A stretch of DNA of 49,782 nt from a virus (taxonomy: Duplodnaviria > Heunggongvirae > Uroviricota > Caudoviricetes): IMG/VR virus record IMGVR_UViG_2721755728_000004. The stretch is one strand, 5' to 3'. The position numbers were made by a program, and so were the translations under genes. This document shows positions 3,884-32,009 of this stretch, one piece after another. Under the pieces are notes generated by a model. It had not been told where the DNA came from. It made no database searches and saw nothing but the letters and a program-made list of their open reading frames with translations. Each line of letters opens with the position of its first letter. The stretch's first letter is position 1.

Positions 3884-6797
3884 TATGCAAGCCTCACAAT
3901 GTAGTTAAATGCGATGTTTTTGACGGTGTTTTCCGCGTTACCAGCAGCGTTAACGGTGATGGTGTGTCCATGTGAGCCAATCGCAACAGAGTGCGTATGA
4001 GCACCAATACCGACAGTATGTGCGTGAGCACCTGCAGATGCAGCTGTGCCGCTGACACTATGAGTGTGCGCTCCTGCAGCACTTGTATTCACACTGGCCG
4101 CAGACACTACCTTATGTACTGACCCATTTTGTGACCACTGGCTGACTGCTGATGCGCCTGTGACACTATGAGTATGGTTTCCGGCACTTGCGGCTGTACC
4201 GCTCACACTGTGCGTATGCGCCCCGGTGTTATTCGTGGATTTAGTGCCGTAATCAAACGACGATGTGGTTTTCGTCCCCAAATCCGTACTGGATGCACTG
4301 GCGCTGTGGGTGTGCGATTTAATGCCGTCCTGTTCCTGAGACAATACGGCCCGACCACTGGCAGGTTTGCCCTTAATCGTCCAGCCACGCATATCAGGGA
4401 TCACGCCTGACGGATAAGCGGTTGCAAGTTTCGGGTAAGCGGATTTGTCAAAAGTCTGCCCCTGCATCAGGGCATAACCAGACGGAACGGTATCTGATGG
4501 CCACGGGATTGGTGCGCCAGGCGGATAAAACTGCTCTGATGGTGTATAGAGTGAATAAACTGTACCGTCCGTTAACCCTTCCGGCTTATTAGCAGAATAT
4601 GCTGGTGACGTATGAATAGTCACGCTGGCATTACTGGTATAATCCCATTGAATATTTACACCAGTCGCATAATTTCCGATTGCAACGTAAATATCGTAAG
4701 TATCACCAGATGTATTGACCCAGGCAAAATTTGTAAACCCTGTCGATGTGCGCTGCCATAAAGCACCAGTAATCCCCTTCGGATTACCATTACCTGCACG
4801 CAAAACAAGTTCAGATATACCTGCCTGTTGAGGTGACCCCACGTTAAATCCCGCGCCACCAATCAACGTAATTGAAACAACAGAACTCGCCTGTGGCATG
4901 GTTACCGTTGCTAATTTGAACCAACCAGCACCACCGCTGAATGACATTGTTGTTGAGTTAAGCGTACCAATATCTTTCGGCGTCAGTGTTATATCCGCTG
5001 AAAGCGCCTTACCATTCACCTTACGGGCAGAAGGTACCCGACCATTCGCATTATCATTAGCTGCTTTCACTGCTTTCGGTGTCGCGGCAAGCGTTTCAGA
5101 TGCGCTGTTGGTTGCACTACTGAGCTGGACAATTCCTTTTTGTGCTGTCGTAGCGTCCTGAGCAGTATATTTCCCGTTAGCAAGGTCATAGGCTGCCTTT
5201 ACCGACTTTGGCGTTGCCGCCAGCATTTCAGATGTGCTGTTGGTCGCGCTGCTGAGCTGAACTATCCCTTTCTGTGCTGTCGTTGCATCCTGTGCGGTGT
5301 ATTTCCCGTTAGCCAGCTCATACGCGGCCTTAACGGCTTTTGGCGTTGCCGCCAGTGACTCGGAAGTGCTGTTAGTCGCACTGCTGAGCTGTACTATCCC
5401 CTTTTTCGTCGTGCTCGCATCCTCAAGCGCCACGGCGGATGCAATATCCTCTGCCCGTTTTGCCGCTGTCTCGGCGCGCGTTGCCGCGGATTCCGCCGTA
5501 CTTTTGCTCTGAGCTGCCGCCGTCGCACTGCCAGCTGCCTCTGTCGCCTTCGTGGATGCCGTCGTGGCGCTGCCCTTTGCTGCTGACGCCTGTCTGGTCG
5601 CCTCATCTTTTGAAGCAGACGCAGATGATGCCGATGACGCCGCCGAACTGGCGGACGATGCGGCAGCCGTTTTTGAGGATTCTGCGCTGGTTTCCGACGC
5701 TTTCGCGTTCGTCTCGGATGTCTTCGCTGCGGAAGCAGACCTCGCTGCTGCGCTGGCCTGTTCAGTGGCTTCGCCAGCCTTCGTTGTGGCTGTTGAAGCG
5801 GACGATGCGGCGCTTTCTGCCGATTTTCCGGCAGCGGTGGCACTGGCTGAGGCCTGCCCGGCACTTGTTGACGCGGCACTGGCAGACGACGCAGCCGCTG
5901 TTTTTGAGCCTGCCGCAGCTGAGGCGCTCTGTCCCGCTGCCGTCTCAGAAGACCTGGCGTTCGTCTCGGACGTTTTTGCCGCCTTCGCGGAATTTGCTGC
6001 CGCCGTTGCCGAGGAAGCTGCGCTACTGGCGCTCGAGGATGCGTTCGTTTCTGATGATTTTGCCGCCTCTTTTGAAGCCGACGCATCCCGGGCTGAGGTG
6101 GCAGCTTCTGACGCTTTCGTGGTCGCGGTGGATGCAGAAGTGGCGGCTGATTGTTGTGACGCTGCAGCATTCGTTCTGACGTTTTCGCGGCAGCGGCACT
6201 GGTAGCTGCCGCGCTTTTTGAGGACTCTGCAGCGGCAGCACTTTTTTCCGCTTCAGTGGCCTTTGTTGATGCCGTTCCTGCGCTGGAAGACGCTGACTGA
6301 GCCGACGAAGCGGCCTGTCCGGCTGACGTGCTGGCTGCACGTGCTGAATCTGCAGCATCAGTCGCATGGGTTGCCGCCTCACGGGCAGATGTGCCGGCAT
6401 CACTGGCTGACTTCTTCGCGGCTGCCGTGTTCTGTGCCACCACGGACGCGTTACGCGCCACCTCTTCCACCATCTGTTCAAAACGGCGCAGTGCCTCCGG
6501 ACGGGCATCATCCTCCGTCATGGCACCGAGAAAATCATTCAGCGTACCCGGCTGAGAATCTTCATACACGGTGATGGTCCCGGCATGTGACGGCGGGAAT
6601 CCTTCCACCAACAGAATAACGCTGTACTGACCGTACTCAACGTCCATGCTGTAACGCCCGGCTTCATCCGGATTTTCTGAGGCCAGCGTGTTCACCACCA
6701 CCGTGGTGCTGTTACGTTTTGCTTTCAGCTGGATTGTGCAGTTCTGTACCGGTTTTCCTGTGCCGTCTTTCAGTACACCTGAAATCTTTACTGCCAT
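3883..6797 (-). pseudogene. stf: Side tail fiber protein Stf, interrupted by an apparent 1-nt frameshift near 6174-6176
   Basis: N-terminal approx. 208 codons (from ATG at 6797) are lambda Stf-like, then the Stf-like Ala/Ser/Thr-rich sequence continues in another frame down to the conserved C-terminus (..[18 protein letters not shown]) at 3883. The ORF-track entry 5394..6803 reads Arg/Pro-rich nonsense after the shift. Confidence 0.6.
5070..5433 (-). repeat. Tandem 117-bp (39-aa) repeats inside stf, about 2.7 copies
   Basis: Protein repeat [41 protein letters not shown] occurs three times in a row; DNA shows the matching direct repeats. Boundaries approximate. Confidence 0.6.
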
Positions 6798-6861: not shown

Positions 6862-7461
6862 TCAGAACTTATAACCGACACCCACGATGAAACCGTCAGT
6901 GCGCCAGTCGCCACTGCCGGAGCCTTCATAAGCAATATCAATGGCCACGGATTCGGTCGGGTTAAACTGCACGCCAGCTCCCCACGCCAGAGACGTGTTG
7001 CTGTGGCGACCGTCATCACTTCCGGTCAGTACATCGTGCGTTTTCCCCTTGTTGTCAGTTACGCGAAGATAATCCCCGGAGAAAGTCGACACACGGCTGT
7101 AAGCCACACCCGCCATCGCATACGCGCTGAACCATTCATTCACGCGCACAGACGGCCCCGCCATCACGCTGAACCAGCGGTTACGCACGGAATCTTCATG
7201 CCAGCGGGTATCGCTGTAATGGGTCAGCTGGCGATTCTTGTCTCCTGCATAGCTGAATGACGTCACCATCCCCAGTGTGTCCGTAAACTCATAACGGTAT
7301 TTCACGTTAATCCCGTTCAGATCATCGCTGCCGGGAACGTTCGTCGAGGCATGAAGATACCCCGCGCTCAGCGTGGACTGATGTTCAGACGCCCATGCAG
7401 GCGCACCGGATACGGCCAGACAAATGGCTGCGGACAAAATGGCGGCATAAAGTTTACGCAT
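6862..7461 (-). CDS. lom: Outer membrane protein Lom (Ail/Lom family)
   Basis: 199 aa with signal peptide and Lom-like beta-barrel sequence; located between J and stf as in lambda. Confidence 0.9.
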   Translation of the reverse strand: MRKLYAAILSAAICLAVSGAPAWASEHQSTLSAGYLHASTNVPGSDDLNGINVKYRYEFTDTLGMVTSFSYAGDKNRQLTHYSDTRWHEDSVRNRWFSVMAGPSVRVNEWFSAYAMAGVAYSRVSTFSGDYLRVTDNKGKTHDVLTGSDDGRHSNTSLAWGAGVQFNPTESVAIDIAYEGSGSGDWRTDGFIVGVGYKF

Positions 7462-7527: not shown

Positions 7528-10929
<3,402 letters not shown>

Positions 10930-10937
10930 TCACACTC

Positions 10938-10968
10938 CATAAACAACAAAGCCGCCCAAAAGGCGGCT
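10938..10968 (-). terminator. Rho-independent terminator downstream of the lipoprotein moron
   Basis: Hairpin gccgcc-caaaa-ggcggc followed by TTTGTTGTTTAT on the minus strand, just upstream of the J start. Confidence 0.5.
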
Positions 10969-10992
10969 CATGAGTTACGGCAGGATTAACTA

Positions 10993-11331
10993 TTATTTAC
11001 ATGCATTAACACTATCAGCAAAAATTTTTGGCGTTAATGCTGGTACGCGTTCATAAAGAGTAAAACTACTGCCATTTCCTGCTTTTTTGATATCAAGCAC
11101 AACATCATACCCACCCATAGCCTGTGGAACTAAAAGGCTTACCCCATTCTCAATAGGAATGGATGTTATAGGTGTTCCATTACCAGCCCATTGTCTGGAT
11201 ATGCAGCCTGACAATTCATCAATATTTTTTAATGAATTACCTTCCATTACAGGCTTGCCGGATTTTACGTAATCCAAAGATTTACATCCTGTTAAGGCAA
11301 TAATCGTGCAGAATAAAATCGTTTTGTTCAT
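10993..11331 (-). CDS. Lipoprotein moron of unknown function
   Basis: 112 aa from ATG at 11331 (MNKTILFCTIIALTGC..): signal peptide plus lipobox LTGC. AT-rich relative to neighbours and inserted between tail genes I and J. Confidence 0.7.
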   Translation of the reverse strand: MNKTILFCTIIALTGCKSLDYVKSGKPVMEGNSLKNIDELSGCISRQWAGNGTPITSIPIENGVSLLVPQAMGGYDVVLDIKKAGNGSSFTLYERVPALTPKIFADSVNACK

Positions 11332-11403
11332 ATAGCTAACCAACAGAATAATTATCAGTGTTCGATATAAATATTAAATCAGTTAGAACATGAGTAAATA
11401 ATA

Positions 11404-12045
11404 TTACCGCCCAATTACCACAACCTGACCACCATCCCCTTCATCTGCCGTGCTGATCTCCTGAGATGCCACACGTGACCCCACGCGCATTTCACCGTAC
11501 AGAACAGGCAGGACATTGCCCTGGGCAACCATGTTATCCAATGAGGAAAAATAGGTATTTTGCTTACCGTTATCAGTGGCTGACACTTTAGGCGTTTTGG
11601 CTTTCGGTGCCAGCATCTGCGCAACACCGCCTAAAACCATACCTGCCCCAAGAGAGAACATGAGATTACTTGCAACAATACTAAGCCCCGGCATCCAGAT
11701 TGCCGTAGCAATTAGCGCCGCACCCAGCACTGCCTGAAAAATACCGCCACTTTTGGCACCCGCCAGACGCGGTACGATGTGGATCACGGCACCATTTGCC
11801 AGCGGCTCATTAAGACGGGCAGATAATTCGTTTTCGCCTGCATCACGCCCGGAAATGCGCACCTGATACCAGCCCTCATTCAGTTTCTGGCGAAACGCCG
11901 GAAGCTGCGTGGCCAGTGCGCGGATGGCTTCAGCCCCCGTTTTCACACGAAGGTCGATGCGGCGGCCAAATCGTTGCAAATCCCCGTAAAGGCAGATGCG
12001 TGCCATTCCCGGTGACGCCAGAGGGAGTGTGTGCGTCGCTGCCAT
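11404..12045 (-). CDS. Tail assembly protein I
   Basis: 213 aa, lambda I-like (MAATHTLPLASPGMARI.., C-terminal ..GDGGQVVVIGR). Confidence 0.85.
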   Translation of the reverse strand: MAATHTLPLASPGMARICLYGDLQRFGRRIDLRVKTGAEAIRALATQLPAFRQKLNEGWYQVRISGRDAGENELSARLNEPLANGAVIHIVPRLAGAKSGGIFQAVLGAALIATAIWMPGLSIVASNLMFSLGAGMVLGGVAQMLAPKAKTPKVSATDNGKQNTYFSSLDNMVAQGNVLPVLYGEMRVGSRVASQEISTADEGDGGQVVVIGR

Positions 12046-12719
12046 TTGTCGGTATACCTCTCTCGTTTACTCAGTTGTTCAGGAATATGGTGCAGCAGCT
12101 CACCGTCGCCGCAGTAAATGGCGGCATGATTCGGCACCGATGAACCAAAACAGCACAGCAGAATATCGCCCGCCTGTGCAGAGGACAGGGGCACCCGGTA
12201 AAAGCCCGTTGCCTCCATATTGTCCAGGTACAGGTTCTGACCGTTTCGCCACCACTCATCCTCGCGGTGAAAATCCGGCATCTCAATCCCCGCCAGATGG
12301 TATGCATCCCGGAACAGCGTGTAACAGTCCGTCACCCCGTGCTCAAAACGCCGCCCGGTCAGGTGTGGAACACAGCGGAATTTATGAATGTCTCCCCGGC
12401 AGACCAGCCACCAGGACAGTGCGCTTTTTATCTGCAGACGCCGGTCTGCCTCGCTCAGCCAGGGCAGACCACAGGGATGACTGTGGACCAGCGCCACAAT
12501 CCCCCCCTGCATCTCTGCCTGCAGCCAGTCTTCCGGTGCAATACGAAAATACGCCTCCGGCTCTGCGGAGATATTCACGCAGGGAAAATATCTTTCCCCC
12601 TCCGGCGTTCTCACCACGAAGCCGCACGACTCCGCTGGCGCACATCGCCGGGCGTGCGCCAATATATTGCTATAGAGCATGAGAACTCCTGATAAAAAAC
12701 CCAGCCGAAGCTGGGTCAT
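11943..12719 (-). CDS. Tail assembly protein K (MPN/JAMM + NlpC/P60 domains)
   Basis: HSHP metal-binding motif and NlpC/P60-like C-terminal part; overlaps the start of I. True start may be internal. Confidence 0.85.
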   Translation of the reverse strand: MTQLRLGFLSGVLMLYSNILAHARRCAPAESCGFVVRTPEGERYFPCVNISAEPEAYFRIAPEDWLQAEMQGGIVALVHSHPCGLPWLSEADRRLQIKSALSWWLVCRGDIHKFRCVPHLTGRRFEHGVTDCYTLFRDAYHLAGIEMPDFHREDEWWRNGQNLYLDNMEATGFYRVPLSSAQAGDILLCCFGSSVPNHAAIYCGDGELLHHIPEQLSKRERYTDKWQRRTHSLWRHREWHASAFTGICNDLAAASTFV

Positions 12720-12734
12720 TTCGTTGGCAATCTG

Positions 12735-13739
12735 TTAGTAGTGATGCAGTGAAGGAGGTAATTCTTTGTTCTTAAGTCTTACCCATGCAGAAAGATTCGT
12801 TGGTCCGTCTGGCTCATTAATATCAATATCTCGCGTGTGATTGATTAAAACGTCTCTCGCCATTCCGATAACATACGAGAACTCATGGCCGTAGTCGTAG
12901 CACCTGCCAGAATAGTTTGATTGAATTTGCTTTAGCGCCGGATACAGTTCGCGGAATAATGCCTGTGAGCGGTTGGCATAATCCCATAGCCATACAAGGC
13001 TGTTTGCTTCTTTCGCTGAAAACTCATTGGTGCTCTTCTCTTGTTTGCCGATTAACTCTCCTTCAAGCGGAACGCGAGCAGCAAGTGACAGAGCTTCGGT
13101 AAACTGCTCCTCGCTGATTTCTTTGTATGAACACCCAAAATGAGATTTCAGTGACGACCACATGGTAATCATCGCCTTCGCCTGTTTTTCTTTTGGCAGA
13201 GACTGACCGCGACTCATGACGAGTTGTTTAATGGCTTCCTGCTGTTCAGTGGTGATTTTCCCCAGCAATGCCTTTTTAGCTTTGCGCGGGTTAACCACAT
13301 GGCCTTTAGTCCAGTACTCGTAGAGCACATCGTCACACTCTTCCTGATACTGGATTACCTTCTCGCGGATTTCAGGGCGGACTTTGTTTGGTTGAATACT
13401 TGAAAGCCAAGCCGCAAATTTACGAAAGGCAAGACATGTCATTAACTGTTTACCGCCAGCAGAAGGTATTTCGATTTCCGAAATACCTTTGGCAAACCTC
13501 TGTTTTAACTTAACAAATTGAGCAGCCCAAACCATCCCCATACCTTCAACAACAGGCTTCATAGGAACATAAGGCTCATTGTTAATTCCAACCAAAAAGA
13601 GATTTGTTCCGTGGAATGGAACATTGATTGTGCGATCTGCAATTGCTAAACTAGTCATATCAGTTTTCTCGTGGTTAACTGGTAATTTAGAAGCCTCAAT
13701 GGTTGCAGCCATTGGGGCTTCGCTGTTTTTAGCGACCAT
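12735..13739 (-). CDS. Antirepressor-like protein (Ant-type)
   Basis: 334 aa from ATG at 13739 (RBS GAGGTG); N-terminal region resembles phage antirepressor domains; lies directly downstream of an Arc-like gene. Family assignment from memory only. Confidence 0.55.
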   Translation of the reverse strand: MVAKNSEAPMAATIEASKLPVNHEKTDMTSLAIADRTINVPFHGTNLFLVGINNEPYVPMKPVVEGMGMVWAAQFVKLKQRFAKGISEIEIPSAGGKQLMTCLAFRKFAAWLSSIQPNKVRPEIREKVIQYQEECDDVLYEYWTKGHVVNPRKAKKALLGKITTEQQEAIKQLVMSRGQSLPKEKQAKAMITMWSSLKSHFGCSYKEISEEQFTEALSLAARVPLEGELIGKQEKSTNEFSAKEANSLVWLWDYANRSQALFRELYPALKQIQSNYSGRCYDYGHEFSYVIGMARDVLINHTRDIDINEPDGPTNLSAWVRLKNKELPPSLHHY

Positions 13740-13902
13740 TCGCCACCTCTTCCCTAACACCTTTTGCCAGCAAACGAACAATTGCAGAGTTCAGAGATAT
13801 ACAGTCCATTTCCGCCAGGCGGCGAAGGTCTTCATTCAGCCGTGATGGAAGGCGAAGGTTGAGTTTGATATTTTTGCGCTCAGTGAAAAGTGTATCTTGC
13901 AT
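13729..13902 (-). CDS. Arc-like ribbon-helix-helix repressor (57 aa)
   Basis: ORF below the 60-aa track cutoff, found by hand: MQDTLFTERKNIKLNLRLPSRLNEDLRRLAEMDCISLNSAIVRLLAKGVREEVANGR. RBS AAGGAG upstream; stop overlaps the ant start; RHH pattern like P22 Arc. Confidence 0.6.
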   Translation of the reverse strand: MQDTLFTERKNIKLNLRLPSRLNEDLRRLAEMDCISLNSAIVRLLAKGVREEVANGR

Positions 13903-14008
13903 TATCTAATCTCCTTTATTTGGTGCCAAAGTGACGCCATGAAGGCCATAATGCCACCATTGAAATCGTATGGCAATATGGCACCATGATTTTTTTGAGA
14001 GATTTGCA

Positions 14009-14329
14009 ATGGCCGAAAAACAAGTAAAAGACTACGACAAGTTCAACCTCCGTTTTCCTGACGGAATGCGAGATGCTATAGCTGAACGAGCCAAACGAAA
14101 CGGGCGCTCTATGAACTCAGAGATTGTTCAGATACTGGAAGATGCCTTGAATGCAGAAAATACTCTTGGGGAAATAGCAGACAAAATCAACAGCGTCTCG
14201 GTTCCGCTAAATGTTGATGCGCTAGTTCAACTTCAAGCCCAAGTGATCGCCATGCAAAAAGAAATACAGGAAAAGTTCAGAGAGCAGAACGAAAAGTTGA
14301 GAGAACTGCTAAACAAAAAACCCACCTGA
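14009..14329 (+). CDS. Mnt-like ribbon-helix-helix repressor
   Basis: FNLRFPDGMRDAIAERAKRNGRSMNSEIVQILEDAL closely resembles the P22 Mnt N-terminus; transcribed divergently from arc-ant. Confidence 0.65.
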   Translation: MAEKQVKDYDKFNLRFPDGMRDAIAERAKRNGRSMNSEIVQILEDALNAENTLGEIADKINSVSVPLNVDALVQLQAQVIAMQKEIQEKFREQNEKLRELLNKKPT

Positions 14330-14348
14330 CGGTGGGCATAATCCATTA

Positions 14349-15044
14349 CTACGAAAGTTTGTTAATGGAAAGGAAGCCGCCAAAGTTGCCGACGTTATTG
14401 CGGAACTTACAACCGCTCAGGCATTTGCTGCATTTATCCTTCGTGATATCGGACGTTGGCTGGTCATATTCATCCGCGACAGCCGGACCGTGATAACCGC
14501 ACTCATCGCCGCGATAGGTCCAGGTGCAGGTGTTGGCCAGCATGATACGTCCCGGAAAAACAGCGCCGTCCGTTTCCGTCGGCGTGGACAGTACAAAAGA
14601 GGCACTCACCGCGCTCAGTTCGCTGCACTGCTCAATGCGCCAGCGGCTGATCACCTCCTGCTCCGGATCGGCGTCACTGTTTCCGTTGACGAAGTTCACC
14701 GCATCCAGAAAACGGGCGTAAACCTTACGCCGGACCACCGTTCCGCCGACCAGACTCTGCAGGTCTTTCGCCATCCCGGTGACCATGCCGTGCAGGTTAG
14801 CAACCGTCAGTGTCGGACGGGCAGCACTGCCCTTGCCATTCAGTTCAAATCCCGTCCCCTGAATGGGGTATGCCTGATACTGCCGCCCCTGCCAGGTAAC
14901 CGGCTCACCTTTTTCGTTCTGCTCATTACAGAAAAAATAACGTTCACCACCGACCACTGTCAGATCGATTTCCCAGAGCACCACCTGGGCTGACTGAGTG
15001 AGGCGTGTCGTCTCATGATGTGTTTCCTGTGGAATATCCAGCAT
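14349..15044 (-). CDS. Minor tail protein L
   Basis: 231 aa, lambda L-like. Confidence 0.9.
   Translation of the reverse strand: MLDIPQETHHETTRLTQSAQVVLWEIDLTVVGGERYFFCNEQNEKGEPVTWQGRQYQAYPIQGTGFELNGKGSAARPTLTVANLHGMVTGMAKDLQSLVGGTVVRRKVYARFLDAVNFVNGNSDADPEQEVISRWRIEQCSELSAVSASFVLSTPTETDGAVFPGRIMLANTCTWTYRGDECGYHGPAVADEYDQPTSDITKDKCSKCLSGCKFRNNVGNFGGFLSINKLS

Positions 15045-30985: not shown

Positions 30986-32009
<1,024 letters not shown>

Follow-up and report, generated by a model that had tools for sequence, protein, structure and literature searches.

A PHROG 914 lipoprotein gene at the I-J junction of a lambda-type tail module and its possible role in superinfection exclusion

We analyzed a 49,782-nucleotide stretch of a Caudoviricetes genome (IMG/VR record IMGVR_UViG_2721755728_000004; the whole stretch is called the window below), in which a lipoprotein gene (10993..11331, minus strand) lies between the tail genes I and J. 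The gene starts with ATG and encodes 112 amino acids beginning with MNKTILFCTIIALTGC. We concluded that it is a real, intact and selectively maintained accessory lipoprotein gene in a lambda-type tail-tip module, and that it is a member, at a new junction, of PHROG 914, a family first flagged in the 2004 record of phage phiKO2. As to its role, we tentatively favor, at a probability of about 0.4, an accessory prophage lipoprotein that would act against superinfecting phages independently of the receptor, at a step shared by lambda-type tails.

The lipoprotein gene and its insertion site

The original prediction, made from the letters of the window, had described an open reading frame (ORF) of 112 amino acids with a signal peptide and an LTGC lipobox, and both were found. 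The predicted protein was identical to RefSeq WP_153274582.1, annotated as hypothetical protein, and RefSeq annotates the gene in hundreds of E. coli genomes at the same site. The signal peptide and lipobox (11284..11331, minus strand) read MNKTILFCTIIA-LTGC, with Cys16 as the lipidation site of a PROSITE-type pattern. The N-terminus, MNK-TILFCTIIA-LTG-C16, satisfied the PROSITE lipoprotein rule with a basic n-region, a hydrophobic h-region and the lipobox. An alternative TTG start four codons upstream (11343, giving 116 amino acids) was rejected, because the ATG gives a canonical n-region and signal peptide and agrees with the RefSeq annotation. When the window was searched for [LVI][ASTVI][GAS]C within the first ~35 residues, two ORFs carried a plausible lipobox in its 49.8 kb, and four further pattern matches looked spurious. 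The second plausible ORF (31036..31305, minus strand, 89 amino acids) is probably an Rz1-type o-spanin of the lysis cassette.

The residue following Cys16 (position +2) is lysine, not aspartate. In E. coli, a residue other than aspartate at this position leads to sorting to the outer membrane by the Lol system. From this rule we infer that the protein is exported, lipidated at Cys16 and Lol-sorted to the outer membrane. The mature protein would have ~96 amino acids, with two conserved cysteines, Cys43 and Cys111.

The same insert was present at the I-J junction, with 95-100% nucleotide identity, in 336 of 5426 complete E. coli genomes (6%; 344 places). Lambda-type J 5ʹ ends were found at 8717 loci in 4338 E. 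coli genomes, and ~4% of these loci carried the lipoprotein gene. No close copy was found in cultured phage records by megablast and tblastn, which returned distant homologues only. Selection was examined in 59 IMG/VR copies and the window, which together made up 13 alleles. None of the 13 contained a stop codon, and the two major alleles differed by five synonymous changes and one non-synonymous change, giving a ratio of non-synonymous to synonymous polymorphism (pN/pS) of ~0.06. These counts are small, and they point consistently towards purifying selection. A few copies were frameshifted (P0002, P0013 and L065-L067).

The upstream neighbor is the tail tip assembly gene I (11404..12045, minus strand; Pfam Lambda_tail_I, E 1.7e-23), preceded by tail gene K (11943..12719, minus strand), and the downstream neighbor is the tail tip and host-specificity gene J (7528..10926, minus strand). 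In BLASTP against lambda J, the J protein was 90% identical over 1132 amino acids, and nearly all of the divergence was in the last ~150 amino acids, the receptor-binding domain, which was ~45% identical. The I-J spacer is 60 bp in lambda and in phage 2H10 and about 490 bp in the window, in agreement with the earlier statement that lambda has no gene at this position. Pairwise and three-way junction alignments placed the added DNA relative to lambda and 2H10 at 10971..11403 (minus strand, ~432 bp), replacing roughly 16-20 bp of the lambda-type spacer. Homology to the empty sites extended up to the stop codon of I on one side and restarted at the start of a hairpin on the other. G+C content was 0.30-0.40 across 10900..11500, as against about 0.58-0.60 in I and J, and 0.37 in the gene itself, as against 0.50-0.58 in its flanks. 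Between the stop codon of I and the ATG of the lipoprotein gene lies an AT-rich spacer of 72 bp (11332..11403, minus strand), the sole possible site of an autonomous promoter. An Rfam scan of 10700..11600 gave only sub-threshold chance matches.

A terminator-like hairpin, GAGCCGCC-TTT-GGGCGGCTT, was found between the lipoprotein stop codon and the ribosome-binding site of J (10949..10969, minus strand, with a T-rich tail to 10939). It has 9 bp, of which six are G-C pairs, and a folding free energy (dG) of -14.9. The gene had been predicted to bring its own terminator upstream of J; the hairpin is indeed there, but its proposed origin was wrong, as homologous hairpins are present in the gene-less I-J spacers of lambda (AAACCGCCTGCGGGCGGTTT, dG -13.1) and 2H10 (dG -15.5). 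The I-J hairpin therefore appears, from these alignments, to be a backbone element common to lambda and not specific to the insert, and it is because of this homology that we let the added DNA start at ~10971. The hairpins in lambda (L079 1464..1490) and 2H10 (L078 about 4191..4220) resemble the terminators found 3ʹ of the lipoprotein gene at other junctions. They could have been left behind as a scar when an add-on gene was lost, or they could serve in the regulation of the late operon.

Structure prediction and a fold search had been suggested as checks. The AlphaFold2 model had a mean predicted local distance difference test score (pLDDT) of 84, exceeding 90 over most of residues 20-112, and showed an alpha/beta two-layer domain. 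The best matches in structure comparison were a DUF302 protein and KA1 domains, at 5-13% identity, and the closest solved fold was Flpp3, a virulence-associated lipoprotein of Francisella. Flpp3 (DUF3568) and the BamC N-terminal domain were only 6-10% identical to the window protein, and their fold is common to many unrelated proteins (DUF302, KA1, Bet v 1-like). The window protein was not placed in Flpp3/DUF3568 by sequence, as it had no Pfam match. Among viral models the only strong match was the homologue from phage phiAH14a (TM score 0.83). The two-layer fold is a common one, and the modeled matches say nothing specific about function.

The PHROG 914 family and its genomic contexts

No family had been recognized for the protein in the original prediction. 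It matched phrog_914 over its full length (E 5.7e-33, residues 1-112 against positions 1-118 of the 118-position profile), the family that contains phiKO2 gp19 and Serratia phage OS31 p54 and that PHROG annotates as "function unknown". A profile search of 1.8 billion representative proteins returned 116 clusters at E <= 1e-3, almost all of them of 105-125 amino acids; one hit, a 1047-amino-acid repeat protein (P0030), was judged a compositional false positive. The family therefore has a size of ~116 clusters at 50% identity, found in Enterobacterales and Pseudomonas-type phages, and its conservation reaches down to ~25% identity. In an alignment of 30 members, all of which matched phrog_914, the only invariant residues were the lipobox cysteine, C43 and C111. 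A C43-C111 disulfide is predicted in the exported protein.

Other libraries added little. Pfam gave no match for the window protein at E <= 1, Bor/Iss-type families included, and only lipid-attachment-site noise, with no domain, across the 30 relatives. NCBIfam gave nothing usable, and the sole library match was to a VirB7 signal peptide (E 0.08). Searches of the literature for WP_153274582.1, for the PHROG number and for phage PhiR30_1 found nothing. In GenBank record AY374448 (2004), phiKO2 gp19 is described as a putative moron gene product, with a putative terminator annotated directly after the gene. The authors of the OS31 study noted the lipobox of p54 and suggested a Cor-like role in 2020 (PMC7556043), and the member in Escherichia phage Fraca is annotated "Phage protein". 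These three are full-length lipoproteins of ~112 amino acids with the same three cysteines, low G+C content, a terminator after the gene and a place in a lambda-type tail-tip module, as in the window. They differ in position, lying between K and I instead of between I and J, and identity to the window protein is only ~30% (32.6% for Fraca and 30.3% for phage LMessi).

Family members were found in several genomic contexts. At the K-I junction, directly upstream of I, they occurred in Fraca, LMessi, phiKO2, OS31, two metagenomic phages and prophages of Yersinia, Serratia fonticola, Hafnia and Kluyvera; a scan of genome contigs gave a single locus, in Kluyvera. At the junction between the chaperone gene T and the tape-measure gene H they occurred in Enterobacter prophages (L003 8001..8342 and L069 9001..9339), whose proteins were 50% identical to the window protein. 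This T-H junction is also the site of the superinfection-exclusion moron gp15 of HK97 (PMC3594210). The I-J junction was occupied in the window and its E. coli relatives, and another member was found at a prophage end, beside the integrase gene. Members of the close subfamily, which share 47-58% identity with the window protein, occupied three different junctions, and the ORF therefore moves independently of its flanks.

Pseudomonas phage phiAH14a (NC_074659) carried its member in the early arm, downstream of a CI-like repressor gene (L094 3962..4948, about 13998..14984). This member is genuine (hhalign probability 99.3%), although it is annotated in RefSeq as two proteins, gp34 and gp33. A second full-length copy of I, sharing 79% identity with the tail-operon I, lies 58 bp beyond it. 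In the tail operon of the same phage, a different lipoprotein of 140 amino acids (gp83) is encoded directly upstream of I. One member was found at a non-phage chromosomal site, in Shimwellia blattae (CP001560; L080 8001..8339; 38% identity), with a YidB-like gene on one side, ecotin on the other and copCD nearby. The Shimwellia copy had a host-like G+C content of 0.62 and no terminator after it, and the phage genes may descend from a cellular gene of this kind.

Nearly all sampled copies belonged to lambda-type tail-tip modules, and most of them adjoined gene I directly. The G+C content of the gene was below that of its flanks in all 12 phage and prophage contexts, but not in the Shimwellia chromosomal copy. 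In 11 of the 13 contexts the stop codon was followed, at a distance of 0-31 nt, by a hairpin with a T-run. Morons of HK97 and HK022 were defined as extra DNA of different composition with a terminator and a promoter of their own and with expression while the prophage is repressed (PMC3594210). The window insert is extra DNA absent from lambda and 2H10, and its base composition differs from that of its flanks, which fits its earlier description as a moron. As to a terminator, a hairpin follows the window gene but is homologous to those in the gene-less lambda and 2H10 spacers, and the homologues elsewhere bring terminators.

Possible superinfection exclusion and competing explanations

In the explanation that we favor, the gene would be expressed as part of the late operon at the least, and it may also have a transcript of its own in the lysogen; such a transcript would explain why a terminator follows the gene in nearly every context. 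The lipoprotein would protect the lysogen or the infected cell from superinfecting phages at the envelope. By analogy with HK97 gp15, the blocked step might be one in which tail-tip or tape-measure proteins, once ejected, cross the periplasm or form a channel. Small lipoproteins encoded next to J, namely the mEpimmI Lpp proteins (PMC11893012) and Cor, are known to exclude phages, although they are unrelated to the window protein. We favor a step common to lambda-type tails over the receptor because the gene travels with conserved tail-tip genes, particularly I, and not with the receptor-binding domain, and because one lineage occupies the HK97 gp15 site, gp15 being a precedent for tail-dependent exclusion. 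HK97 gp15 blocks DNA entry in a manner that depends on the phage tail and not on the receptor (PMC3594210). Like the window gene it is an add-on gene in a lambda-type tail operon, and the Enterobacter homologues share its junction, but it is not homologous, and instead of a lipoprotein it is a YebO-like protein of the inner membrane.

In a more specific form, which we consider unlikely as it stands, PHROG 914 would be a new Gram-negative exclusion family that does not mask receptors and intercepts ejected gpI or tape-measure protein from the periplasmic face of the outer membrane. Functionally it would then parallel HK97 gp15 and the Gram-positive lipoprotein Ltp. The recurrent linkage to gene I fits such interception, for example in the duplicated pair of lipoprotein gene and I in the early arm of phiAH14a.

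Several results weigh against superinfection exclusion. In the 72 bp between I and the gene, no sigma-70 promoter scored high enough to reach the threshold of the scan. The best promoter-like match there was TTTACT-17-AATATT, which agreed at 8 of 12 positions; of the control windows taken from this region, 9% scored as well. Across contexts such matches were uneven, being good in OS31, in L084 and in Fraca, where they overlapped conserved K codons, and poor in the window. Moreover, the upstream spacer showed no conservation with the DNA upstream of homologues at other sites. The Shine-Dalgarno sequence of the gene was weak, and an autonomous promoter is only a possibility. Permissive intergenic sites, together with inheritance as part of the module, could by themselves account for the association with tail modules, and the Shimwellia member suggests an ancestral cellular function unrelated to phages. 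No relationship to known exclusion proteins was found: hhalign against Fraca Cor (phrog_1119) aligned residues 2-32 only, namely the signal peptide and the first mature residues; T5 Llp appeared in the PDB profile search (8a60_B) at E 0.49 over residues 1-20 only; and profile comparison with the mEpimmI lipoproteins Lpp021 and Lpp010 aligned the signal peptide and at most a few mature residues. PADLOC (PADLOC-DB) gave zero families at E <= 1 for the window protein. Finally, our literature search found no experimental work on any family member.

If superinfection exclusion is true, a widespread lipoprotein family would be added to the exclusion repertoire, and its uncoupling from the receptor-binding domain could point to the poorly understood step by which lambda-type phages deliver DNA across the periplasm. 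In practice, the gene would join the prophage genes that can limit therapy or typing with phages in E. coli. If the gene has no phage-related function, it would be an ordinary prophage cargo lipoprotein.

Such cargo could be a host-fitness or virulence factor unrelated to phages, acting in serum or complement resistance (as lambda Bor), in tolerance to colicins or antimicrobial peptides, or in envelope stress signaling. We regard this as a credible but rather less probable role. Lambda-type prophages carry cargo of this kind, with Lom directly downstream of J in the window, and Bor-type lipoproteins are a precedent. The Shimwellia member adjoins the gene for ecotin, a periplasmic protease inhibitor, and the closest solved fold, Flpp3, is virulence-associated. 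On the other hand, the searched Pfam families gave no match, those of Bor type included, the match lists showed no pathotype bias among the carriers, which came from hosts and sources of all kinds, and the contexts of the family were almost all phage tail modules, which are not the usual sites of virulence cargo.

Receptor masking of the Cor/Llp type had been put forward in the original prediction. A lipoprotein of this type would inactivate the receptor of its own J, excluding phages that use the same receptor and sparing progeny from adsorption to debris. The characterized small phage lipoproteins beside J or other receptor-binding genes of Gram-negative phages all act by such masking, namely Cor and, among the mEpimmI Lpp proteins, types A and C. 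T5 Llp likewise masks a receptor. The window gene adjoins J, and a Cor-like role is what the authors of the OS31 study proposed for p54. However, the lipoprotein was 98-100% identical in all E. coli copies, whereas the J receptor-binding domains downstream of it fell into at least four clusters that were <65% identical or unalignable, none of them of lambda type. Conversely, the cultured phages with the window's receptor-binding domain (2H10, PhiR30_1, Turner and SPF_0923) lacked the gene; in 2H10 this domain was 99.6% identical to that of the window, next to the spacer of only 60 bp. Because the lipoprotein is constant across receptor-binding-domain types and phages with the same domain do without it, masking of the receptor of its own J is unlikely, although different domain types could share one receptor. 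Homologues also occurred next to I or the tape-measure gene, or well away from J, and Fraca carries both a phrog_914 gene and a cor gene.

Comparison with the known masking proteins pointed the same way, as the homology to Cor, Llp and Lpp did not go beyond the signal peptide. Cor (of phi80, N15, HK022 and T1) and T5 Llp are, like the window protein, small phage outer-membrane lipoproteins encoded beside tail-tip or receptor-binding genes. They are, however, ~60-80 amino acids long and tied to one receptor, FhuA, while the window gene is not tied to a receptor-binding-domain type. The Cor family phrog_1119 was not matched by the window protein and was touched by 2 of the 30 relatives (E ~5e-4). 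The mEpimmI lipoproteins Lpp021 and Lpp010 are encoded in the structural cluster beside J and exclude phages experimentally, Lpp010 excluding lambda (PMC11893012). Type A of these lipoproteins is carried by phages that use OmpA, and type C by those that use LamB (PMC11893012). Their sequences are unrelated to that of the window protein, and they differ from it in their length of 72-82 amino acids, in their place downstream of J on the opposite strand and in types that track receptor use; Lpp021 belongs to phrog_4281, the Rtp45 type.

A function in the lytic cycle only, such as an aid in release or the prevention of progeny re-adsorption, with transcription solely in the Q-antiterminated late operon, is improbable. 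The gene is always on the strand of the tail genes, at the K-I junction no more than 36-43 bp separate it from K, which gives a promoter little space, and no convincing promoter was found in the window. Yet close relatives do without the gene, which only ~4% of lambda-J-type loci carry, and if the gene were purely late, the terminator directly behind it would be difficult to account for. The phiAH14a copy, downstream of the repressor gene, belongs to the early arm, another prophage copy lies beside an integrase gene, and the known carriers are all temperate phages.

A decaying, functionless hitch-hiker in a tolerated intergenic site would agree with the weak Shine-Dalgarno sequence, the unproven promoter and the few frameshifted copies, but it is hardly credible in view of the synonymous excess, the 13 intact alleles out of 13, the invariant cysteines, the confidently folded domain and the conservation across the family.

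Other genes in and around the tail module

An Ail/Lom outer-membrane beta-barrel gene (6862..7461, minus strand) lies directly downstream of J, as in lambda. With lom downstream and the lipoprotein gene upstream, two envelope-directed cargo genes therefore flank J.

In the Yersinia enterocolitica prophage with a family member at the K-I junction (L082 3400..8000), a cargo block of ~4.5 kb was found upstream of the lipoprotein gene. It contains genes for SocA/Panacea-domain, Arc, Bro-N/antirepressor, KilA-N/ANT and FtsK-gamma-domain proteins, and the K-I junction is therefore a general cargo hotspot.

The tail operon of the window contains a second add-on block, between the tail genes L and K (12735..14329). 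This block carries a gene for a P22-type antirepressor (12738..13781, minus strand) and two Arc-like repressor genes, one on the minus strand (13732..13902) and one on the plus strand (13970..14326). An identical layout of the L-K antirepressor and Arc block was found in E. coli strain C3.

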